From the NCBI GenBank assembly GCA_003695265.1, contig RFII01000050.1:1-33842 (forward strand): a DNA stretch of 33,842 nt. The letters run 5' to 3'. The translations under genes were made by a program, and so were the position numbers. The notes beneath the pieces were generated by a model. That model saw only the letters and a list, made by a program, of their open reading frames with translations. It made no database searches and was not told the origin of the DNA. This document shows positions 1 through 9,978 of this stretch, piece after piece (position 1 is the stretch's first letter; each line of letters begins with the position of its first letter). The stretch comes from Candidatus Woesearchaeota archaeon (GTDB lineage: Archaea; Nanobdellota; Nanobdellia; Woesearchaeales; J072).

Positions 1-1278
1 ATCAAAAATCTTATAAAAACTAACAAGGAACTGCAGGAAACCTTATCAAAAATTCTTGCCAACATAAGTGGGCTGCCAAAAAAGAAGCAGGAAAAGCCCT
101 TTTTTAAGGCAGATTACCAGAAAGATCAGGCTTCTATTATTAAAAAAAGGGAACTGCAAATAACTGATTTGAACGAGGAATTAAAGCGCAGAAACAAACT
201 TATCCAGCACCTGGCAGCAAAACTTAGGCTTGCTCAGGATTACAGCGCCCAAGCCAATAAACAGCTCAATCTGCTGAATAAGAAATTGGACTCAAAAAAC
301 AGACAAATACTTCTTATGAAAAAAGAACTGGAAAAAAGGGATAAATACATTCAAAAATTGGCAGCCGAAAAAAGCGATGAAACCAAGACATTAAAAAATA
401 CACTCTTAAAAGCACAGGAAGAAATCAACTTAAAAAACACACTTATTTTTAATCTTGAAAAAGAGGTTGAAACACACAAAAATTCTTTGGAAGAATTAAA
501 GCGAAAACTGCGAAGGCTGGCAAATGAATCTTATGAAAAAGAAAAGAAAATAACTCTTCTTAAGTCTGAAAATTCTTCCTTAGCAAATGCTGTTAGGGAA
601 TTAAAGCAGAATTCTGATTTGTTGTCAGCGCAGGTTGAGTCTCTCAAGTCGGATTTGGGTATTGCCAGGCAGAAAATCGTCGCTGTAGAAACAAGAGCCC
701 GTAAAAAAGAGGCGGCCTCTAAAAAGTCTTTAGAAATGTTGAAAATGGAGTATGAGAAGTCCTTGAAAGAACTTATTAAGAGCCAGTCTCAAAAAGAAGT
801 CGCTCTAAAGTCAAAAATTAACGAGTTAAACGAGAAAATACTTAACAAGGCACTGCTTCTTAAGAAAAAACAGGAGCAAGAAAAAAAATTATTTTACACT
901 TTTAACAAAGCCTTAAGAAACCTTTTTTATTTGAACGAGTCTGAATTAAAGCCAATGCTAAAAAAAGCGCTTTCTCAACAAACACAACCAACACAAGAGC
1001 CAGACCAAAAGGAAATCACAATACACCACTCCAGCGATGATAATGATTCTTTTTTTGTTGACGAACCACAAAAATTTCATACGCCAATCCACACACCTGT
1101 AATGCATAAAACTGTCAAACAAGTTATAAATGAGGATGATCCTTTAAAACTGCTCGTTCCTATGGTAAAAACAGCCTTAGACCATGGTGATTCTGTTGAG
1201 CAGATAAAGCATTCTTTACTCAATTCCGGCTATTCTGAGAAACACATAGAAGAAGCATTAACAAAAGTCAAAAAATAA
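1..1278 (+). CDS. Long coiled-coil protein with a small C-terminal helical module; 5'-truncated by the window edge
   Basis: The frame is open from base 1 (IKNLIKTNKELQETL...), so TTG 169 is probably not the start. Long K/E/L heptad-like stretch, a low-complexity linker, then LVPMVKTALDHGDSVEQIKHSLLNSGYSEKHIEEAL. Confidence 0.8.
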   Translation: MKNLIKTNKELQETLSKILANISGLPKKKQEKPFFKADYQKDQASIIKKRELQITDLNEELKRRNKLIQHLAAKLRLAQDYSAQANKQLNLLNKKLDSKNRQILLMKKELEKRDKYIQKLAAEKSDETKTLKNTLLKAQEEINLKNTLIFNLEKEVETHKNSLEELKRKLRRLANESYEKEKKITLLKSENSSLANAVRELKQNSDLLSAQVESLKSDLGIARQKIVAVETRARKKEAASKKSLEMLKMEYEKSLKELIKSQSQKEVALKSKINELNEKILNKALLLKKKQEQEKKLFYTFNKALRNLFYLNESELKPMLKKALSQQTQPTQEPDQKEITIHHSSDDNDSFFVDEPQKFHTPIHTPVMHKTVKQVINEDDPLKLLVPMVKTALDHGDSVEQIKHSLLNSGYSEKHIEEALTKVKK

Positions 1279-1287
1279 AAAAATAAT

Positions 1288-2256
1288 TTATCCCGCGTGT
1301 TTTACCAGCACTGGTGTTGTCACGTGGTCCTTATAATCAAACTCTGCCTTTATTGTCACAAGCTTTTTGAACTCTGAGTTTATTGGCATTGACAGCTGCT
1401 GCACACACCTAATTATTCTGTGCCCATTAAACAGCTTTACTTCTCCAGAGTCCCTTCCTGCTTCGTTCGGGCCGTCCAATCCATTGCAGTCAAGGGTTCC
1501 GCTTAATCCAGTGTCAACCTCAACATAAATTGTGTCCTCATCTTGAATGGTGTCACTACATTCAGTGCCTAATCTTGAGATTAAGCCAACATTTCTGTGC
1601 TGAAGCTCAAACGTGAAAGCTATTTTGTCATTTCCTTGTGCTGATTCTGTTAATGAGGCGACCTGTATTGGAGATCCTGAATTATAAACCGTTTTTTGCT
1701 CGTTCACAAAACACACTGGCTCAACAATCTTTGTCCCAGATGCTGTCTCTTGCGTGTCTAACAAATCATCTTTTATACATAGAAACGCTTCTGACATCAA
1801 ACCGTACTGGTAACAGATGTCTGCCCTGAAAAAGAATTGTGTTTGGCCGCTCACATTACCAGCATAATTCCATTCTCCCATGTCAACAAATGAAATCCCT
1901 CCTGGAATTACATTAAGATCAGGATCAAACTCTTGGCCTGGTATGTCCTCATTAACAATAACAGTTTGTTCTCCTGTCCTTCCAAAGTCTTCTGGGTCAA
2001 CACCGACAAGAGTTACTTTAGCTTCTCCTGCGTTAATATCCCATTCACCAACATTCTCCAAGACTACCTGGACCCCGAAGGGAAATTGTCCTTGATCAAA
2101 CACTATGCCTGGTGGTGAGCCCTCAAGAAAGCCGATGTCCAATCCCTGAGTTCCTCCAATAAATGGGTTGGTAGTATCACCTACTTGTTGCCCACCTTGG
2201 GTGCATCCAACGATTATTAATCCAAGCGCAATTAAAAGAATCAAGATCTTGTTCAT
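1288..2256 (-). CDS. Putative lipoprotein, paralog 1 of a Cys-rich two-beta-sandwich family
   Basis: Signal peptide with lipobox IVGC; SD GAGGAGG upstream; shares G-x-x-G-x8-10-PP, NxG, CYxY and G(S/A)P motifs and 6 Cys with the neighbours. Confidence 0.85.
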   Translation of the reverse strand: MNKILILLIALGLIIVGCTQGGQQVGDTTNPFIGGTQGLDIGFLEGSPPGIVFDQGQFPFGVQVVLENVGEWDINAGEAKVTLVGVDPEDFGRTGEQTVIVNEDIPGQEFDPDLNVIPGGISFVDMGEWNYAGNVSGQTQFFFRADICYQYGLMSEAFLCIKDDLLDTQETASGTKIVEPVCFVNEQKTVYNSGSPIQVASLTESAQGNDKIAFTFELQHRNVGLISRLGTECSDTIQDEDTIYVEVDTGLSGTLDCNGLDGPNEAGRDSGEVKLFNGHRIIRCVQQLSMPINSEFKKLVTIKAEFDYKDHVTTPVLVKHAG

Positions 2257-2262
2257 TTTCCA

Positions 2263-2270
2263 GCCTCCTC
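2263..2270 (-). promoter_or_regulatory. Shine-Dalgarno GAGGAGG for 1288-2256
   Basis: Minus strand reads GAGGAGGCTGGAAAATG. Confidence 0.7.
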
Positions 2271-2331
2271 TTTTTTGGTCTTCATTATTTAAACAACTTT
2301 TAATTATCAGAAATGATTATGAAGTTAGCAA

Positions 2332-2346
2332 TATATAAATTTTTTG
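2332..2346 (-). promoter_or_regulatory. Putative BRE/TATA promoter (CAAAAAA-TTTATATA) for 1288-2256
   Basis: A-rich BRE-like run directly before TTTATATA in a 114-bp intergenic gap. Confidence 0.5.
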
Positions 2347-2370
2347 GTTTTTTCTCCTCTAAAAAAGGTT

Positions 2371-3306
2371 TTAAACAAAAATGCTCCTAATAATTCTCAT
2401 GTTTGTGTAAATAGAATCCCTGTAGCCGTAACCAAGCCTTAACGTAAGCAAAGTCTCGTAATTTTCTCCAAAATCCAAGCATGTTTCGCAATAACAATAA
2501 ATGTACCCTTCGCCGCGTTCATCCAACCTTATTTCATCAGGCTTGCAAGTCAGAGTGTTTTCTGCGAGGCGTGCCTCTTCAAGAGACAACTTGTTGTATT
2601 CATCTCTTAAAAGGTCTGTGTGGCAGTTAGTAATCCCTCCAGGACCACTACCTTTGTAAAACACTTCTCCTCCACCAAGATTCTTAAAAAATATTTTGAA
2701 TTGCACTCTCTGGCCTATGATGTTCTCTTCAATCCTGGTAATTGCTACAGGCGCTCCTTGGCCGCCTGCCAAGGAAAGGTCATGCACCTCACAAACCTTG
2801 TCCTGTATTGTGTTCGTGTAATCAGTGTCAATGCACACCTTTGGAGTGGCATAAGTCTCATAATAATAGCATGCTGTTACCTTAAACGTTTGGTCAAAAT
2901 AAGGAACCTCTTGCGGAATTTCAACACGGTCCTCCCTGAACGAAACAGTTCCATAAATATCGCCGTAAGGGTTGAACTCGCTTATTCCTGGAGCCTCAAA
3001 AGTCCTGGTGTTGTCATAAGAAAGGTGGGGAAAGTACCTGTCGTCAAATCCTGTAAGGTAAAAATACCCTTGTCCATTTGTTATGTCATATGTTCCTTTG
3101 TTTGAGAACTCAACCATTATGTCCACTGGATCTCCATTATATATCTCTGCCGGCGGCGTGTTTGGAAGAAACCTCATGACAATTCCCAAGTTTCCTCTCG
3201 CGTAGTCAACAGCATAATCACGCCGAGACCCGAACCCACCCCAATAAGTACAACCAACTAAGAAAATGAAAATAAAAACCAATGAAAATTTCACTATTTT
3301 ATACAT
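2371..3306 (-). CDS. Putative lipoprotein, paralog 2
   Basis: Lipobox LVGC; motifs FLPNTPP, FSNKG, ACYYYET, KVCIDTD, GQGAPVAI, KNLGGG, LGYGY. Confidence 0.85.
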   Translation of the reverse strand: MYKIVKFSLVFIFIFLVGCTYWGGFGSRRDYAVDYARGNLGIVMRFLPNTPPAEIYNGDPVDIMVEFSNKGTYDITNGQGYFYLTGFDDRYFPHLSYDNTRTFEAPGISEFNPYGDIYGTVSFREDRVEIPQEVPYFDQTFKVTACYYYETYATPKVCIDTDYTNTIQDKVCEVHDLSLAGGQGAPVAITRIEENIIGQRVQFKIFFKNLGGGEVFYKGSGPGGITNCHTDLLRDEYNKLSLEEARLAENTLTCKPDEIRLDERGEGYIYCYCETCLDFGENYETLLTLRLGYGYRDSIYTNMRIIRSIFV

Positions 3307-3329
3307 GGAACCACCAACCTGTTTTGAGC

Positions 3330-3344
3330 TATATAAAATTTTCG
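3330..3344 (-). promoter_or_regulatory. Putative BRE/TATA promoter (CGAAAAT-TTTATATA) for 2371-3306
   Basis: Good archaeal BRE+TATA ending about 23 nt before the ATG, consistent with a leaderless or near-leaderless mRNA. Confidence 0.55.
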
Positions 3345-4313
3345 CTAACTTTCAAGGCTCCTAACAATCTCAACCTTTTTTTGGATTGAGTTGCTGTAAC
3401 CGTACTCAAGCACGATTCTAAGCACTGATTCATGCGCGTCTTTCTCTTTTGGCACGCTGTAAGTGCAGACAAACACTGCTTCATCATTGTACAGCCTTAT
3501 CCTTGGAACCATCAAAACATCATCAACAGGTTTGCAAGTGTCAGTTATTTCAAAGTCAGACACAAAAACCTTTGGGTAAACCCATCCTTTATTGTTCCAC
3601 AAATCTTCGCTTGTGTATTTTGAGGCAAGGCAGGGCATGTCGTACTTGCCAATGTCAAACACTTCCCCATCACCTTCATTTTCTATTTTTATTTCAAAAG
3701 TAACATCAACTATCGAAGGATCTTGAGTCTCTGTTACATATTCATTTACATAAGTGACAGCAATCGGAGCTCCTTGTCCTTTGCTGATTTTTTTATCTGA
3801 AATGTAACATGTCTGGTCTGTTTTTACCCCTCCAGCTGGTATTGTGTCTATGCAAACAGGTATATTGGCAACAGTGTAATAAGGATAGCAGGCAACCACT
3901 TTTATTGGCACATCATAAAAGTTTGTCTCGCTATCAGGAAACCTTATGTTATAAGTTTCATATTCTTTGTATTCATAGCCTCCATTCAAATTTATTTCAC
4001 TTCTGCCTTCTAAAGAAAACCTGTTTTCTTCGCTTCCCTCAACGTACAAGCCCTGAACCAGCTTAGTGTCAAACCCTTGAATGCTTATTAAGCCGTCAAC
4101 AACATCACTAGTTCCTCTGTTTCTTATTTCCAGGCCTACGTGCAGGCCTGAGTGCTGCCACACCTTGTCAGGTGGAAGGTTGTCAGCAAAGCTTAAAACA
4201 ACACCCTCTTTTCCGCTAGCGTCAAAAGTGTAACTGTTTGAGGGCTGAAAGCTAACCAGGCAGCCGCTTAGCGCGGCCAGCAAAAAAATGTGAAGCACAT
4301 GGATTAATCTCAT
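3345..4313 (-). CDS. Putative lipoprotein, paralog 3
   Basis: Lipobox LSGC; motifs FADNLPP, IRNRG, ACYPYYT, VCIDT, GQGAPIAV, ENEGDG, LEYGY. Confidence 0.85.
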   Translation of the reverse strand: MRLIHVLHIFLLAALSGCLVSFQPSNSYTFDASGKEGVVLSFADNLPPDKVWQHSGLHVGLEIRNRGTSDVVDGLISIQGFDTKLVQGLYVEGSEENRFSLEGRSEINLNGGYEYKEYETYNIRFPDSETNFYDVPIKVVACYPYYTVANIPVCIDTIPAGGVKTDQTCYISDKKISKGQGAPIAVTYVNEYVTETQDPSIVDVTFEIKIENEGDGEVFDIGKYDMPCLASKYTSEDLWNNKGWVYPKVFVSDFEITDTCKPVDDVLMVPRIRLYNDEAVFVCTYSVPKEKDAHESVLRIVLEYGYSNSIQKKVEIVRSLES

Positions 4314-4314
4314 A

Positions 4315-5262
4315 TTACCTTTCCTTCACTTTTATTACATTATACTTTGTAACAACATAACCATACTTTAAGTTTATGTTTAAGGGCGTTACGTACTCTG
4401 AATTGGGCGTTTCTAGTTCTCCTGTGCAAACAACATAATTCAACTCGTTTTTGTCAGTCATAATAATTTCACCCTCATTGCTGTCTGCCCCGCATTTTAA
4501 GTCAACGTCATGCAATTGGGCAGTCACCTTAACAACTTCCAAATCATCATACGTGAACTTGTCGCTGCCGCAAATATCCCAGAGTACAGCGGTGTTTTTT
4601 GTGATTTGCCCGTCACCGACGTTTTTCACAAATATTTTGTACTGGACATTCATCTTATTGTCGCTCACTATCGCAGAAGGCTCCACCCTGCTCACAACAA
4701 CAGGCGCTCCCTGCTCCTTAAGGTCAATGTTTTCAGCCTTGCAAACCTTGTTTTCTTTTATGTTGTAAGGGTCTGGGTCAACGCAAACATCAGGATCAGC
4801 GTTTGTTTCGTAAGTGTAGCACAGTTCTGTTTGAATAAGGCATTCATCATCTCGCTTGTCAGCATGCAGCGTTAAATCACCAATCCAAAACCCTCCGCCT
4901 GGCTGAAACCTCGAAACGCCTTTTATTTCAATGTTATTTATAGTAGCTGCGTGGTGCGTTCCCGCAAGGTCAGAAAAGCTCACTGCCTTGCAACTCGAAA
5001 CAGCTATTGTCGCATCATTAACATCAGTAACGCCGAGGTTCCTGACTTCCATAGCAACCTTAAAATTAGTATCCTCCCAGACCTCTGGAGGTGGGGCATT
5101 TTTCAATAGTTTCATCACTAATCCTTGACCGCCCACGTTTAAGTCTAGGAAATCAATTTCTTTCCCTGTCTTTTGTCTGATTCCACAACTGCTGAGAATC
5201 ATAACTGCAAAAATCAAGATTACAGCAAACATTATTTTTTTCACTTTAAGTTGCGGCCTCAT
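4315..5262 (-). CDS. Putative lipoprotein, paralog 4
   Basis: Lipobox LSSC; motifs LKNAPP, VRNLG, LCYTYET, VCVDPD, EQGAPVVV, KNVGDG, LKYGY. Start is ATG 5262 or GTG 5244. Confidence 0.85.
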   Translation of the reverse strand: MRPQLKVKKIMFAVILIFAVMILSSCGIRQKTGKEIDFLDLNVGGQGLVMKLLKNAPPPEVWEDTNFKVAMEVRNLGVTDVNDATIAVSSCKAVSFSDLAGTHHAATINNIEIKGVSRFQPGGGFWIGDLTLHADKRDDECLIQTELCYTYETNADPDVCVDPDPYNIKENKVCKAENIDLKEQGAPVVVSRVEPSAIVSDNKMNVQYKIFVKNVGDGQITKNTAVLWDICGSDKFTYDDLEVVKVTAQLHDVDLKCGADSNEGEIIMTDKNELNYVVCTGELETPNSEYVTPLNINLKYGYVVTKYNVIKVKER

Positions 5263-7039
5263 TGTCAATTATTTCAAAGCTCTGCTGCTTTTCAATTATG
5301 TAATTATAGCTCATCTCTGAGCTTATTACCAAGTCAACAGGGTTGTTTGTTTCGTCAAACAGCCCGCGCGTGTCAAGCTCCAATGGTATGTACGTGTAAG
5401 CGAGCTTTCCTTTCTTCTCAAACTCCTTTATTACTCTGTTAAACTCTGCTTTTGCATCTGTTGTCATACAACACCTTTTTCCTGTGCAGTCAATCGTCGC
5501 GTCCCCACTCTTTTTTGAAATGAAGTCAGGAAGCTCTAAGCACAGTTCAGTGACCTCATCGATTTTTCCCTCGCCGTTATTCACCAAAGCAACTCTTAAG
5601 GGAAGCTCTATTGTTTTATCATCAGGCACAGGAACAGGCGATTCCCTTTTTGTTGTCAGGTCAATCATTACAATGTTTGGGTCCATGGCAGCAGGCACAA
5701 CAACATTATTGTATGGGAAAGGCTCTTGAGAATAAAGGTCCGGCGTTCCTTCCCTTATAAAATACGTTTTAACGCTTGAAGTTGACCTCTGACCAAATTT
5801 AATCCATCCTGTCAAATAATAATTCCCTTTTGTTAATTCCAAAGGCGCTGACTTGCAAAGAGATATTGTTTTTGAGGTTCCTGCCCTGTACTCTTTAGAA
5901 ACGTGAAATTCGTTCGGCACAGGATCACTCGTACCAGTAAAATTACTGGTTGCGTTGCTGAACCTGCAATGTATTTCTCCATCAATATCAAGCTCGTCAT
6001 TCCCCCTTATTACCTCCACTTCCATGCTTAAGCCAGTCTCTTTAACATAATTTGAAGTGTAAGAACCATAAACCTCATCCAAATTAAGCTTGACTTCAGT
6101 TGGGATTTTCTCTGTTTCTTTGCCCCCTATAACAACAACTTCTTCCTGCTCCCCTGTCGTGATTTGATCATACTCTGTGCAGTCCTGCTGCGGCCCTATG
6201 CATTTCAGGTAAGCTGCCTGTAATCTTCCTAAATTAAGCAGACCTTCACCAATAGCTGACGCTTTTTCTTTTACACCCACAATTCTGTTATTAACAATTT
6301 CGTACTGTTCCGGAGCAACTATCATCCTTATGTCATACCCCCACGCTCCAAAATCGTTTTGGTCTAGGAAGAAAGCAAGCCAAAACAACAACAGCAAAAA
6401 CCACATTCTAGCATTAAAGCTTGTCGGCTCATAAGTTGAGCCTGCAAGCAACCCTATGTAGCTCCACCAAGGCCACAGCGGCTTGAAGAAAATCCATTTG
6501 ACGAAAGGAACAGTATGCAAGTACGGTCCCAACAGCTTCGGCATAAAAACTTCGAGTGAAATTCCGAGAAGAGCCCATATAAGACCGTCATGCCTGAACC
6601 TGAAAACAACACCCCACAAGACGCAAGCATATATTATGTCAACAACAATTGTTGCTGTAGTAACGCTGTAAGCCGGCATGCCGACAGACCTTGGAAGCAT
6701 GGAATCAATAACATAATTGTTCAGCAAGCCAAGGATTACGAACCAGTCGAACATGCTTCCGGGCAGAAACCCGCCAAGAAACCCTGCTGCGCCGCCCAAA
6801 GCCCATTTTGCAGTTCCTTTAACAACTGCACCTCCCATTCCGGCGGCCCTTTCAATTCCTCTTCCTGCTTTCTTCACCGCTTGCTTTGCCTGGGCAGCAG
6901 CCGCTTTTGCCCTTTCCTTCGCTGCTTCTTCCTGTTCTTCTGCTGTTTCCTCCTGCTCCTCTGCCAATTCTTCTTCTTTTTCTGCTGCTTTTATCTCCTC
7001 TTTAAGCTTCTTCTCTGTTAACTCATCAACATCAGCCAT
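5246..7039 (-). CDS. Polytopic membrane protein with a C-terminal ectodomain related to the lipoprotein family
   Basis: E/K/A-rich N-terminus, Gly-rich segment, about 5-6 hydrophobic helices, then a beta-rich domain with VALVNNGEGKI and terminal MSYNY, 8 Cys, and sequons NAT/NFT. Confidence 0.8.
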   Translation of the reverse strand: MADVDELTEKKLKEEIKAAEKEEELAEEQEETAEEQEEAAKERAKAAAAQAKQAVKKAGRGIERAAGMGGAVVKGTAKWALGGAAGFLGGFLPGSMFDWFVILGLLNNYVIDSMLPRSVGMPAYSVTTATIVVDIIYACVLWGVVFRFRHDGLIWALLGISLEVFMPKLLGPYLHTVPFVKWIFFKPLWPWWSYIGLLAGSTYEPTSFNARMWFLLLLFWLAFFLDQNDFGAWGYDIRMIVAPEQYEIVNNRIVGVKEKASAIGEGLLNLGRLQAAYLKCIGPQQDCTEYDQITTGEQEEVVVIGGKETEKIPTEVKLNLDEVYGSYTSNYVKETGLSMEVEVIRGNDELDIDGEIHCRFSNATSNFTGTSDPVPNEFHVSKEYRAGTSKTISLCKSAPLELTKGNYYLTGWIKFGQRSTSSVKTYFIREGTPDLYSQEPFPYNNVVVPAAMDPNIVMIDLTTKRESPVPVPDDKTIELPLRVALVNNGEGKIDEVTELCLELPDFISKKSGDATIDCTGKRCCMTTDAKAEFNRVIKEFEKKGKLAYTYIPLELDTRGLFDETNNPVDLVISSEMSYNYIIEKQQSFEIIDNEAAT

Positions 7040-7098
7040 TTTTGTTTAGAACAACAGAAATTTCTTCTATTCACCTCTTTTTCTGTTGAAAATCTTGA

Positions 7099-8793
7099 TT
7101 AGGTTTCAACTAGCTCTACGCGCAGCTCAACAATGTCAAGCGACTTGCTTAGCGGCACTATTGTTATTCCGTTGCTTCCGGGCTCAACATAATTCCCTAT
7201 GCTTCGGTAAAACTCCGGCTGCCTGGTGTTGAATGAGAATGTGTGGCCATTAACAAAAACTTCCCCCTGCTTCATTTCAAGATCGTCAATGAACCTCAAC
7301 GTAAGAATAACATCGTAAGCGTCGCTTAACACGAAATCATAAAACTCAACGGACTGCGGCCTTTGCCTTGGAGGGCAATCAGGATTATCACCGTCGCTGT
7401 TCTCATAACCTGCCGGGCAGTCGTCACATTCCGACGTGCTTATTCCAGCCTCGCAAATGCTTCTCACACCTGTTGTTGGGAAATCATCACACCACCAGTA
7501 CGAGCCGTTCTCTTCTTCAAAACAGCAGTCTTTATCATAATAAATTGAGCAATCATCAGGGCACTCACCATCAGTGTCATCACCACATTCTCCTTCGCAA
7601 GCCTGAGGCGGATCGCCGTTCTTTTCTTCATATCCTGAAGTGCACCTGCCGCAGTTTTCTGATGACACATAAGACACACACCTGTCATCCTGATTGTCTG
7701 TTTCCAAGTCGCACCAGTAATTGTTGTTTATGAAGCAGCAGTCCTTATCCTCATCCTCATCACAACCGCTGGGACAGTACCCATCAATCACACCACAAAC
7801 ACCCTCTTCAAAAAACTCATCAATAGCACCTTCAAAAAACACGTCCGGCAATTCAAAAAAATAGCTTGGATAAACGCTTTCTTTCAAAAAACTCGTTACC
7901 ATTATCTGATCAATTATTATATTTCCTTTGTTTGTGCTGAACTTTACTTCGTTGTTTCCCTCAAACAACGTTTCTGGGCTTATTTCTATTGGGTTGTTCA
8001 TGCTTTTGCATGCGGGAACGCCCCTAAAAACGCGCTCATTGTTTATAATAATTGATAATGTGCCAACTTTGCTTTGATCGCAGTCTGCGTAAAACACCAT
8101 TTCTGCAGCTTCCAAATTCTCTTTTTCGCTTTCACCAAGGACAAACCTGCTTGAAGCAACTCTTCCAGAAATGTCTGAAACATCAGCTGTTATTTTCACG
8201 TTTTCAAGAAGCATCTCATTTGATTTCCAAAACGCGAATCCTGTCGGAGACACAAGAAATTCCAGCACGTTATTTTGTTGAAGAGCATCTTTAGCCAAAG
8301 GTATTGGGTTTGGAGAGTCAGAAATGTATGAATTAAATATTTCTTTTCCATTTAAAAGAATTATTAACCTTCCATTATGAACGCTTGAAGCAAATGATAA
8401 CAGCACGTTTTCTGTGTTTTCAAAATCATTTATTGGAAATTCCAGAGACTTGAACTGCTTGCCAAAAACGCTGTTTTTTACGTAAATATTGCTGACTTCC
8501 TTTATTATTTTTGAGCTTGTTACTGTCTGCAATGACACGCTCGGCAGCGGGTGTGGTATTTCTCCTGTCTGGATGTTTTCTAATCTTCCAGGGCTTTCAA
8601 GCAGTAAAACCTCATTAAAATCAGACGGAATCCTTCCTCCATTGTCTTCACCAGGAACATTTGGAGTTCTTCCTTCAAGAAGCTCTTCCCTTTCTTTTGG
8701 TGGAAGAAAAAGAATGTACAACACAACAAGTATTCCAATAATAATTATTAATGATGCAGCCCCTGAAGCCCTTTCCTGTGCCTTTCTGCGCAT
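7099..8793 (-). CDS. Membrane-anchored surface protein with a class III (prepilin-like) N-terminus and a duplicated Cys-rich module
   Basis: MRRKAQ followed by hydrophobic LIIIIGILVVLYILF; three beta-rich repeats (hydrophobic-N(G/N)...N-x-hydrophobic); acidic 20-Cys insert; SD GAGGTG at 8802-8807. Confidence 0.8.
   Translation of the reverse strand: MRRKAQERASGAASLIIIIGILVVLYILFLPPKEREELLEGRTPNVPGEDNGGRIPSDFNEVLLLESPGRLENIQTGEIPHPLPSVSLQTVTSSKIIKEVSNIYVKNSVFGKQFKSLEFPINDFENTENVLLSFASSVHNGRLIILLNGKEIFNSYISDSPNPIPLAKDALQQNNVLEFLVSPTGFAFWKSNEMLLENVKITADVSDISGRVASSRFVLGESEKENLEAAEMVFYADCDQSKVGTLSIIINNERVFRGVPACKSMNNPIEISPETLFEGNNEVKFSTNKGNIIIDQIMVTSFLKESVYPSYFFELPDVFFEGAIDEFFEEGVCGVIDGYCPSGCDEDEDKDCCFINNNYWCDLETDNQDDRCVSYVSSENCGRCTSGYEEKNGDPPQACEGECGDDTDGECPDDCSIYYDKDCCFEEENGSYWWCDDFPTTGVRSICEAGISTSECDDCPAGYENSDGDNPDCPPRQRPQSVEFYDFVLSDAYDVILTLRFIDDLEMKQGEVFVNGHTFSFNTRQPEFYRSIGNYVEPGSNGITIVPLSKSLDIVELRVELVET
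7375..7797 (-). repeat. Two tandem ~70-aa Cys-rich protein repeats (10 Cys each)
   Basis: CGVIDGYCPSGC..DKDCCF..YWCD..C..C..CTSGYE...C versus CGDDTDGECPDDC..DKDCCF..WWCD..C..C..CPAGYE...C. Confidence 0.85.
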
Positions 8794-8839
8794 ATAAATT
8801 ACACCTCTATTTTTAGGCGTTTGACATAGCTTTGATTTT

Positions 8840-8877
8840 CAAAAATTATATATATAGAGCACTATTTAAATGTTTTG
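8840..8877. promoter_or_regulatory. Putative overlapping divergent promoters for the surface cluster (-) and pelota (+)
   Basis: Plus strand CAAAAA-TTATATAT (8840-8853); minus strand CAAAACA-TTTAAATA (8877-8863). Confidence 0.45.
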
Positions 8878-8910
8878 CTAATAATAGAGAATTAAAATGA
8901 AAAATCAAAA

Positions 8911-9978
8911 ATGAAAATCATTCATAAAAACTTTAAGACAGGAGAATTAAAATTTCAAGTTCAGAACCCTGATGATTTGTGGCATGTAAGCCAAATAATC
9001 GATCCTGGAGACCTTGTCAGCGGTCAGACTTTTAGAAAAATCAAGATTGGTAACGAAGACCAAAGAAAAGCAGCGACTGTAAAAAAAAAAGTTTTTCTAA
9101 CCATAATGGTTGAGCGCGTTGAATTTCACAAGTACAGCGACACTCTGCGCGTTTTAGGCACGATTGTTGAAGGCCCGGAAGACCTGCAAAAAGGATCACA
9201 CCACACGATAAGCATTGAACAAAACTCAATAATAAAGCTGAAAAAGGAGAAATGGCTTTCTTTCCAAATAGAAAAAGTAGCAGAAGCATCCAAGCAGAAT
9301 CTGCCAAAAATAATCCTTTGCGTCATGGACCGCGAACAAGCAATCTTTGCTCTTTCAAAACAGTTTGATTACCAAATAATATCTTCTATTGAAGGTGATG
9401 TTGAGCGCAAGGAAAAAAGGGCTTCTTTCAAAGGAGGATTTTACACTGAAATAGTAAAAATTTTAAATGATTATTCTAAAAGGTACAAGCCAAAAAACAT
9501 TATTCTTGCGAGCCCGGCTTTTTTCAAAGATGACCTTTACAAAAGCATTAAGGATAAGGATTTGAAAGACCTCATTGTTTTAGCCACTTGCTCTTCTGTA
9601 AGCAAAAACGGCCTGAACGAGCTTCTTAAAAGGCCTGAAGTCCGTCAAGTTCTCCATCAAGACCGTGTCGCAAAAGAAATAAAATTTGTTGAGGAACTGT
9701 TGTCTGAAATCTCAAAGGACGGCGCAGCCTCGTACGGGTTTAACGAAACAAGGGATGCGGCAATTGCAGGAGCAGTAAAAACGCTTCTAGTAACAGACTC
9801 TTTTATTAAGAAAAAAAGAGAATCCGACGATTATTCTTCTCTCGATTCTGTTATGAAAGCAGTTGACGCTTCAAAAGGCGAAATTCACATAATAAGCTCT
9901 GACAACGACGCTGGAAAAAAACTTGATGGTCTCGGCGGAATAGGTGCTGTTTTAAGGTATAAAACAAATTTTTCATAA
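8911..9978 (+). CDS. pelA: mRNA surveillance / ribosome rescue protein Pelota (Dom34)
   Basis: N-terminal DDLWH..I..GD and LRVLGTI..GP...GSHHT; central ASPAFFK; C-terminal AGKKLDGLGGIGAVLRY. Confidence 0.96.
   Translation: MKIIHKNFKTGELKFQVQNPDDLWHVSQIIDPGDLVSGQTFRKIKIGNEDQRKAATVKKKVFLTIMVERVEFHKYSDTLRVLGTIVEGPEDLQKGSHHTISIEQNSIIKLKKEKWLSFQIEKVAEASKQNLPKIILCVMDREQAIFALSKQFDYQIISSIEGDVERKEKRASFKGGFYTEIVKILNDYSKRYKPKNIILASPAFFKDDLYKSIKDKDLKDLIVLATCSSVSKNGLNELLKRPEVRQVLHQDRVAKEIKFVEELLSEISKDGAASYGFNETRDAAIAGAVKTLLVTDSFIKKKRESDDYSSLDSVMKAVDASKGEIHIISSDNDAGKKLDGLGGIGAVLRYKTNFS

Follow-up and report, generated by a model that had tools for sequence, protein, structure and literature searches.

An operon kept across Woesearchaeales and sister orders that may encode a multi-subunit cell-surface platform

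Introduction

Which proteins do the Woesearchaeales, the Pacearchaeales, and their relatives, among the most widespread of the uncultured archaea, use at their surface and in contact with other cells? Neither a cell-surface machinery nor one for host contact has yet been defined in them. The question is raised by six genes, here named G1 to G6, on the minus strand of positions 1288-8793 of a stretch of DNA from a Candidatus Woesearchaeota archaeon (assembly GCA_003695265.1, contig RFII01000050.1, positions 1 to 33,842; this whole stretch of 33,842 nucleotides is referred to as the window, and its contig as C100). The source genome comprises 1.06 Mb and is 94.6% complete. Among sequencing runs, this DNA was listed for a single DNA run, a hot-springs metagenome that is probably the source, and for no RNA run. 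A previous inspection of the letters and open reading frames (ORFs) alone, the sequence-only reading, had proposed that the genes encode an undescribed, disulfide-stabilised envelope structure, which could be a pilus-associated scaffold, an S-layer-spanning pore, or a host-attachment device. On the best reading of the present analysis, the six genes make up the copy that this genome has of an operon, G1-G2-LP(n), where LP stands for lipobox protein, which is kept across the class of Woesearchaeales and sister orders. Tentatively, its product is explained as a surface platform that engages the wall of a partner cell. The gap is thereby given a concrete gene set: three families, in fixed order, in ~88% of 401 genomes.

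Results

Gene layout

The cluster consists of the following genes and parts of genes (aa, amino acids):

7099 to 8793, minus strand: G1, 564 aa; modelled as an N-terminal anchor, a disordered linker, two jelly rolls, a Cys-rich insert, and a third jelly roll
7366 to 7806, minus strand: Cys-rich double repeat of G1 (aa 330-476), recognised by its Cys positions; an insertion that varies between lineages
5246 to 7039, minus strand: G2, 597 aa; charged N-terminus, 4-5 hydrophobic segments (aa 85-225), Cys-containing ectodomain
5258 to 6088, minus strand: possible LP-like ectodomain of G2 (aa 318-594), from a structure match and hhalign, both weak
4315 to 5268, minus strand: G3, 317 aa; lipobox LSSC with Cys28; "first" LP orthologue group
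3345 to 4313, minus strand: G4, 322 aa; lipobox LSGC with Cys18; "second" LP type
2371 to 3306, minus strand: G5, 311 aa; lipobox LVGC with Cys19; "second" LP type, the extra copy in this genome
1288 to 2256, minus strand: G6, 322 aa; lipobox IVGC with Cys18; "last" LP orthologue group

ORF calls and the gaps between them (59, -23 (an overlap), 1, 38, and 114 nt, in order from G1 to G6) confirmed that the six genes are co-oriented and closely packed, as had been read from the letters. So was the even number of Cys residues outside the signal and transmembrane parts, which holds for every one of the six proteins (22, 8, 8, 6, 8, and 6 from G1 to G6). As to export signals, G1 has an anchor segment and G3 to G6 have lipobox signals; G2 is polytopic and begins with a charged N-terminus, not with a signal peptide. 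When the six proteins were scanned against Pfam and NCBIfam, no family reached its cut-off, in agreement with the earlier statement that no enzyme, ABC, or ATPase motif is recognisable. The notion that the proteins belong to no characterised family stood up as well. Pfam models of the CARDB, DUF11, and COG1361 type, applied at E <= 1 to the six proteins and at E <= 0.01 to family members, hit none of the six and 0 of 42 LP, 0 of 34 G1, and 0 of 15 G2 members; elsewhere in the genome, CARDB scored above its cut-off in six matches. Classification of the cluster as ABC-linked COG1361 proteins was rejected because neither a fitting family nor a fitting neighbour was present.

Distribution and gene order

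Homologues of G1 and the LPs, where named, are hypothetical proteins of "Candidatus Woesearchaeota" or "Nanoarchaeota", which supports the DPANN origin that had been presumed. With a profile built from the four paralogous LPs, 2944 cluster representatives were retrieved at E <= 1e-3 among 1.84 billion proteins, and G1 has more than 200 homologues at ~40% identity. Of 401 sampled genomes of the phylum, 356 had a match to the G1 profile and 351 to the LP profile. When the two sets of matches were compared, both families were present in 344 genomes, neither in 38, G1 only in 12 (mostly with weak G1 scores), and LP only in 7, which answers positively whether the families co-occur. These tallies include six unpublished genomes (G243, G244, G321, G332, G359, and G395), all of which are positive for both families; when they are excluded, the counts are 350 of 395 for G1 and 345 of 395 for LP, and none of the loci described below came from them.

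Gene order was compared in three sets of loci: 21 long loci of ~20 kb each, from 20 genomes and the window (set A); loci from five genomes of other orders of the class (set B); and 59 additional stretches, each reaching at most 5.5 kb downstream from G1 (set C). In set A, G1, G2, and the LPs follow one another contiguously and on the same strand in 17 of the 21 loci. The four exceptions are an inserted 273-aa ORF, two opposite-strand ORFs between G2 and the LPs, an inversion of G2 and three LPs 7 kb away, and a contig that ends after G2. The order G1-G2-LP-LP was found in four of the five genomes of set B, the remaining one having G1 alone beside pelota. A match to the G2 hidden Markov model (HMM) was present in 54 of the 59 stretches of set C, and at least one LP likewise in 54. 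Overall, a G2-type gene adjoins G1 in 78 of 85 loci, with LPs downstream. The conserved neighbourhood expected of a single system is thus real, and the recurrence of this order across the class is not a chance arrangement.

Upstream of G1, the surroundings too are kept in many genomes. Pelota is its divergent neighbour in 18 of the 21 set A loci, and the gene for PheRS alpha is found in ~11 of the 21; with pelota, the gene for a TrmB-like regulator, and those for PheRS alpha and beta holding their positions, the surface operon resides in a stable housekeeping neighbourhood. Among the conserved neighbours in set A, as defined by ORF clustering and not by a Pfam scan, there was no pilus gene, ATPase, or ABC component. 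Across 11 genomes, the median pairwise identity of G1 was 37.7%, that of the LPs 32-34%, and that of G2 28.4%; pelota reached 45.6%. The values for the cluster, set against that for pelota, are taken as a sign of purifying selection.

The lipobox proteins

G3 to G6 are paralogues (blastp E 3e-31 to 1e-3), and the genome contains only these four copies. Each starts with a hydrophobic stretch, which ends in LSSC, LSGC, LVGC, and IVGC, respectively; all four sequences fit [LVI][ASTVI][GAS]C, the lipobox motif quoted in the abstract of PMC12462473. The strict motif was found in 134 of 183 LPs from the database and in 40 of 52 LPs from the loci, and a Cys lies within the first 45 aa in 182 of the 183. 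The alignments of both the LPs and G1 contain invariant Cys columns. We regard G3 to G6 as putative lipid-anchored proteins, the sequence pattern suggesting that they are lipidated and exposed at the cell surface.

In a quick maximum-likelihood tree of the 52 LPs of set A, all 15 LPs encoded in the last position formed one clade (SH-aLRT 99), with G6 inside. Those encoded in the first position grouped together in 13 of 15 cases, G3 among them (SH-aLRT 87), and the 13 second-position LPs made up a third group, into which both G4 and G5 fall. Mapping the position labels onto the tree required 5 changes, compared with 25.4 for shuffled labels (0 of 200 shuffles were as low). By this sequence-based measure, the LPs are three old orthologue groups that keep their gene order. 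As G4 and G5 are both of the second type, the fourth LP of the window reflects a local duplication. Most genomes of the order have three LP matches; those of other orders have one or two.

The sequence-only reading had attributed a shared beta-rich domain to five of the six proteins. For the four LPs, this is firm. The model of G5 (AF2, 42 relatives; pLDDT 90.3, pTM 0.82) consists of a signal helix and two beta-sandwich domains, the best fold matches of which are generic sandwiches of the Ig-like, macroglobulin (MG), HAP2-domain-III, and CARDB kinds (Z 9-10.4 over ~100 residues). The match to the CARDB domain of PF1109 (Z 9.0, rmsd 3.2, 107 residues) ranks alongside numerous sandwiches of the Ig-like, MG, and FN3 types, for which Z is 8-10. 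A three-chain complex prediction for the ectodomains of G3, G5, and G6, with a 14-row alignment for each, gave 0.01 and 0.00 against a mark of 0.32, which is no evidence either way.

Several further observations concern this family. In the public annotation, G5 begins only at Met44 (268 aa) and so loses the signal peptide and the lipobox; since both are conserved in the homologues, the real gene is probably the longer ORF, which begins with the ATG at 3306. Some LP orthologues are considerably longer, with 909 aa (L038:8931-11660 (+)), 518 aa (L040:8774-10330 (+)), or, in the second type, 427-466 aa, and the extra parts had no Pfam match. When the 999 ORFs of 100 aa or more in the genome were scanned crudely for a lipobox, 18 candidates emerged, four of them being the LPs; several of the others are Cys-rich, for instance proteins of 926 aa with 37 Cys (contig C54) and of 1981 aa with 39 Cys (contig C64).

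G2 and its hydrolase fusions

A word-index search with G2 returned only the protein itself, and its relatives were found through their gene position and with home-built HMMs. The HMM made from positional homologues aligned with the window's G2 over two collinear segments (aa 14-225 and 457-549) and scored 42 bits. The N-terminal half contains the hydrophobic segments, the number of which varies among homologues. Within the membrane part, D112, P190, and W192 are conserved; outside it, the same holds for C358, C395, N487, G491, C524, Y578, and Y580.

For G2 as the fifth carrier of the beta-rich domain, the evidence is weaker than for the LPs. In a structure search of the ESM Atlas, residues 318-594 matched a 264-aa Nanobdellota cluster, with TM 0.63 in the row of that match; this cluster is the LP family's own, being the top feature hit of the LP family. 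When the G2 and LP families were compared by hhalign, E was 1.4e-3 at a probability of 18% over 165 columns, with a shared N-x-G-x-G and a shared terminal YxY strand. The ectodomain of G2 is likely LP-like.

A Pfam scan covered 72 G2 homologues, 18 from set A and alignment A4 and 54 from set C. In 12 of them, a murein-hydrolase domain scored above the Pfam cut-off, namely SLT in 9 (34-63 bits), Peptidase_M23 in 2 (60-62 bits), and NlpC/P60 in 1 (52 bits), and always C-terminal to the LP-like core. A relaxed scan of 22 long G2 proteins without hits added one sub-threshold SLT and nothing more. The carriers belong to nine taxonomic families and are scattered over a tree of the G2 core (hmmalign and FastTree; 62 sequences, 8 Fitch changes), and it follows from this scatter that the modules were gained or lost repeatedly at the same position of G2. 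The host-attachment option that had been raised for the cluster is thereby supported, if indirectly.

In the window's own G2, Pfam detected no hydrolase domain, and the protein ends 17 residues past the conserved YxY strand. Nor was an SLT or NlpC/P60 domain found anywhere in the genome. A Mur-ligase domain was not found in it either, so nothing suggests that the organism makes a murein wall of its own. The genome does encode, at C43:24461-27280 (+) (locus L129), a 939-aa protein with N-terminal hydrophobic segments and a Peptidase_M23 domain (58 bits); it is not G2-like by HMM, and one stretch of it resembles a lytic transglycosylase by eye, with no match to Pfam SLT.

G1

G1 has a single hydrophobic segment (aa 7-35), which follows the sequence MRRKAQ. 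Class III (type IV pilin-like) signal peptides are characterised by a [KR]-[GA] cleavage motif directly before the hydrophobic stretch, and the N-terminus had been called prepilin-like, a label that is only partly borne out. RKAQ does precede a hydrophobic stretch, and the motif [KR][GA]Q is present in 87 of 120 G1 homologues from the database and in 16 of 21 from the loci, with the Gln nearly invariant in the alignment. Other features speak against the label: in the window's G1, E, R, and small polar residues intervene between RKAQ and the hydrophobic run, and the modelled helices (aa 10-29 and 32-39) lead into a disordered linker (aa 41-57), not onto a pilin head.

The remainder of the model (AF2, 34 relatives; pLDDT 86.6, pTM 0.45) comprises jelly rolls at aa 60-207, 212-324, and 485-563 and a Cys-rich module at aa 330-476. 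The fold matches include the N-domain of PNGase F (Z 12.1, rmsd 2.3, 112 residues), BcsB (VIA Z 11.2 over 200 residues and two domains; Foldseek E 8e-6), the carbohydrate-binding modules CBM35/6/36 (Z 8-9), and, by Foldseek, C-terminal domains of GH35. The jelly rolls would thus be of lectin-like, carbohydrate-binding type, as judged from the model, and a shared fold does not in itself show function.

The Cys-rich module holds 20 of the 22 Cys of G1 and has invariant Cys columns in the alignment. It contains the pattern CG..DG.CP..C...D.DCCF...YWCD twice, in units of ~60 aa with 8-10 Cys each and an acidic D-x-D-x-D-C-C, and had no match in Pfam. The module occurs in long G1 proteins (553-584 aa) and not in short ones (389-446 aa), which match the profile at positions ~1-327 and ~480-559 only.

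Depletion of glycosylation sequons

The six proteins together contain only 4 N-x-S/T sequons in 2433 residues (none in G3, G4, and G5, one each in G1 and G6, and two in G2), compared with a genome median of 3.7 per 1000. This scarcity is shared by the homologues in set A, where 41 of 52 LPs lack any sequon. Relative to the number expected from composition, sequons per 1000 aa were 1.1 versus 7.1 in LPs, 3.4 versus 8.7 in G1, and 4.0 versus 5.8 in G2; the other ORFs of the loci had 4.4 versus 4.6. The genome does encode AglB/STT3 (98.5 bits). Such avoidance fits surfaces that are kept free for protein-protein or ligand contact, and in an exported family it is an unusual, measurable signature.

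According to the accessible part of a preprint (10.1101/2023.10.27.564410), S-layer candidates of Nanobdella have 13-17 sites, and in none of the DPANN archaea has the S-layer protein been determined. An S-layer role is unlikely given the depletion of sequons, which is strong enough that the LPs and G1 as the main S-layer were rejected as the main explanation. Elsewhere in the genome, there are weak matches to S_layer_C of the Methanococcales type, at C36:256-429 (28 bits), C64:483-755 (28.9 summed), and C70:370-615 (22.7). They lie near contig ends and may be fragments of a separate S-layer gene at which the assembly broke.

Discussion

A surface platform that may engage a partner cell

The results are best accommodated, albeit tentatively and with somewhat less than an even chance of being right, by a lineage-wide surface platform that engages the wall of a partner cell. 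The operon would give rise to an assembly that is anchored at the outer face of the cell membrane, stabilised by disulfides, and apparently not glycosylated. G2 would form its integral-membrane core, with an ectodomain resembling the LP fold, and the three anciently diverged, lipid-anchored LP subunits, of two Ig-like sandwiches each, would surround or extend it. G1, held by its N-terminal helix and a flexible linker, would supply three lectin-like jelly rolls, by which the assembly, as a cell-contact platform, could bind the glycan of the partner's wall. In lineages in which G2 carries SLT, M23, or NlpC/P60, the platform would also cut that wall locally; as the producer shows no sign of a murein wall of its own, the target of the hydrolase would be another cell. 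In the window, where G2 lacks a hydrolase domain, the platform would only bind. A physical assembly is suggested by the structure of the operon, by co-occurrence, and by the retention of three LP orthologue groups in order, and the binding of glycan and the target on a partner cell are likewise putative.

Several points weigh against this platform. The cluster is single-copy, near-universal, and set among genes for translation (pelota and PheRS), a placement that looks more like housekeeping than like a fast-evolving determinant of host range, and no host is known for the organism. With 60 of the 72 G2 homologues, the window's included, having no recognisable hydrolase domain, wall-cutting must be optional or sited elsewhere. 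Contact between the subunits is something we infer; the fold link between the G2 ectodomain and the LPs is weak (probability 18%); and the fold matches of G1 and the LPs are to generic beta-sandwiches (Z 8-12). Finally, about one quarter of the homologues lack the strict lipobox, and about one quarter of the G1 homologues lack the strict [KR][GA]Q. A bolder version would see in the operon the contact organelle that has long been sought in Woesearchaeales, Pacearchaeales, and DPANN archaea related to them, with lectin-like G1 docking onto the wall of the partner and hydrolase modules swapped onto G2 breaching peptidoglycan; this appears rather doubtful. If it were true, many of these archaea would live on bacteria and not on other archaea.

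Alternative explanations

The main rival, which we consider unlikely, is a housekeeping scaffold of the organism's own envelope, which would space or anchor the S-layer across a pseudo-periplasm, with G1 bound to glycans of the cell's own S-layer, or else give order to the membrane surface. It would take no direct part in contact with other cells, and the G2 hydrolases would be opportunistic add-ons to a convenient anchor. Such a scaffold would account for the near-universal, single-copy occurrence in synteny with pelota and PheRS, for a conservation not far below that of pelota, and for the majority of G2 proteins without hydrolases. The avoidance of sequons would fit subunits buried and tightly packed under a glycosylated layer, and the weak S_layer_C matches suggest that a separate S-layer protein exists. 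What it hardly explains is that three unrelated families of wall hydrolases were fused repeatedly to the same end of G2, unless there is contact with peptidoglycan, of which the genome shows no synthesis of its own; and as no S-layer protein of a DPANN archaeon has been determined, according to the accessible part of the Nanobdella preprint, the anchoring is uncheckable. That the LPs with G1 constitute the S-layer lattice itself is the reading to which we give scarcely any credence. The accessible part of the same preprint presents Ig-like sandwiches with lipid or transmembrane anchors as typical of archaeal S-layer proteins, and the LP family is indeed lineage-wide; the proteins are nevertheless small (~300 aa) and strongly depleted of the sequons that number 13-17 in the Nanobdella candidates, S_layer_C has its weak matches elsewhere, and three to four subunits plus a polytopic protein are unlike the usual S-layer of one or two proteins.

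If the products were merely co-transcribed and did not assemble, for instance as unrelated adhesins or a protective coat, the generic folds would come as no surprise, nor would the fact that some families keep one LP beside G2 and have other copies elsewhere. This is improbable in view of the fixed gene order across the class, the three LP groups retained in that order, the matching presence and absence of G1 and LP, and reading frames that overlap or are 1 nt apart. Slightly harder to credit, and in our view quite improbable, is a device for uptake, in which G2 would provide a channel or the core of a transporter, while lipids, peptides, or wall fragments that such reduced genomes are unable to make would be captured by the LPs and G1. 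G2 is polytopic and has D112, P190, and W192 conserved in its membrane part, the genome is small, wall hydrolases on G2 could release substrates, and archaeal and Gram-positive importers usually work with binding proteins that are lipid-anchored. In neither the six proteins nor the scanned homologues was an ATPase, permease, or binding-protein family detected, however, and no conserved energising gene adjoins the cluster; the LPs have an Ig-like sandwich and not a known solute-binding fold, and the number of hydrophobic segments in G2 varies. Very improbable, too, is a relation to type IV pili, with G1 as a large pilin-like subunit processed by prepilin peptidase and G2 and the LPs as base or accessory proteins. 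The recurrence of [KR][GA]Q with its nearly invariant Gln is compatible with it, and the genome has one prepilin peptidase (PF01478, 57 bits, contig C3) and two ATPase/TadC loci. These, however, are on other contigs (the T2SSE/T2SSF matches are on C14, C23, C102, and C20, not on the window's C100), no pilus gene is among the conserved neighbours, the modelled helix of G1 runs into a disordered linker without packing on a pilin head, and charged residues (E and R) follow the Gln in the window's G1. A pilus as the main explanation was rejected for this lack of linkage, and the pilus-associated scaffold of the sequence-only reading is not supported.

Relation to known systems

Wall-cutting at the archaeal surface has been noticed before. 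The accessible parts of PMC8204110 and PMC9723730 describe large lytic murein transglycosylase proteins in Pace- and Woesearchaeota (fam00969 in the former and GH23 proteins in the latter) and propose attachment to, or attack on, bacterial walls. In its accessible part, PMC12352652 names peptidoglycan hydrolases as prominent in Nanoarchaeota and contains no account of the G1-G2-LP operon. The transglycosylase proteins stem from the same lineage as the operon and carry SLT on large surface proteins, as do 9 of the 72 G2 homologues; the G2 of the window differs from them in having no SLT. As far as their accessible parts go, both papers treat the hydrolases singly and mention no G1-G2-LP operon, no LP groups, and no optional C-terminal add-on. 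The accessible part of PMC8204110 further defines Module 98, 51 mostly unknown families common to Pace- and Woesearchaeota, which may well include G1, G2, and the LPs. In the accessible part of a preprint on complete Nanobdellota genomes, only "uncharacterized proteins" appear among the conserved markers.

Membrane-anchored or machine-borne scaffolds that open peptidoglycan locally by SLT, M23/LytM, and NlpC/P60-CHAP domains are familiar from the VirB1-like wall hydrolases of Gram-positive conjugation and from phage tail lysins. The catalytic trio is the same as on the G2 homologues; unlike those systems, the G1-G2-LP cluster contains no genes for a secretion ATPase or channel, and no relation in sequence or fold to its scaffold was found. 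With the SlaA/SlaB S-layer systems, as far as the accessible source describes them, the cluster shares Ig-like sandwiches, anchorage in the membrane, and adjacent genes for several envelope proteins; it differs in being poor in sequons instead of heavily glycosylated, in its small lipobox subunits and polytopic component, and in having no sequence relation to them. The accessible text of PMC12462473 presents lipobox proteins as handled by AliA/AliB and prevalent in DPANN archaea. G3 to G6 would belong with these by the motif quoted there and by a Cys conserved family-wide, whereas none of the lipoprotein families described so far accommodates the mature LP domains. Bacterial cellulose synthase has a periplasmic subunit, BcsB, that resembles G1 in combining a single-helix anchor with tandem jelly-roll domains of carbohydrate-binding type. 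In G1, however, the anchor is at the opposite end, there are no flavodoxin-like domains, and no synthase partner is among the conserved neighbours; since the rmsd between the two is ~19 A, only the individual domains match.

Searches of PDB sequences with the profiles of the three families (G1, G2, and LP) returned nothing meaningful. A literature search, to which the family lists of PMC8204110 did not belong, found no description of the G1-G2-LP operon, of its subunit logic, or of the link to hydrolases. The three families are without relatives in Pfam, NCBIfam, or the PDB, and no multi-subunit system of this composition is known; we regard the system as categorically new, with a function that we infer. 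Of its parts, the SLT proteins had been noticed earlier, as had a module made up of unknown families specific to the lineage. The operon connects reports of "lytic murein transglycosylases" that had so far been scattered with one conserved scaffold, and makes testable whether these archaea attach to bacteria and which proteins form the contact site.

Flanking sequences and further observations

Two noncoding features frame the cluster:

8794 to 8910, no strand: divergent intergenic region between G1 and pelota, read from the sequence
1263 to 1287, minus strand: T-rich run directly 3' of the G6 stop codon, read from the sequence

A TATA-like run (~8846-8857) lies ~55 nt upstream of the ATG of G1 and could be the promoter; GAGGTG (8802-8807) is placed just before the ATG. 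The T-rich run after G6, which overlaps the 3' end of a convergent plus-strand gene, is a possible archaeal oligo-T terminator. At window positions 1-1278 (+), an ORF that is open at its 5' end encodes a long Lys/Glu-rich protein, probably a coiled coil, and converges on G6; it clusters with no ORF of the other long loci. On the other side, the cluster is flanked by pelota (8911-9978 (+)), the TrmB-like gene, and the genes for PheRS alpha and beta, names that rest on translations and synteny and not on Pfam, and by a run of short minus-strand ORFs that resembles a ribosomal-protein cluster.

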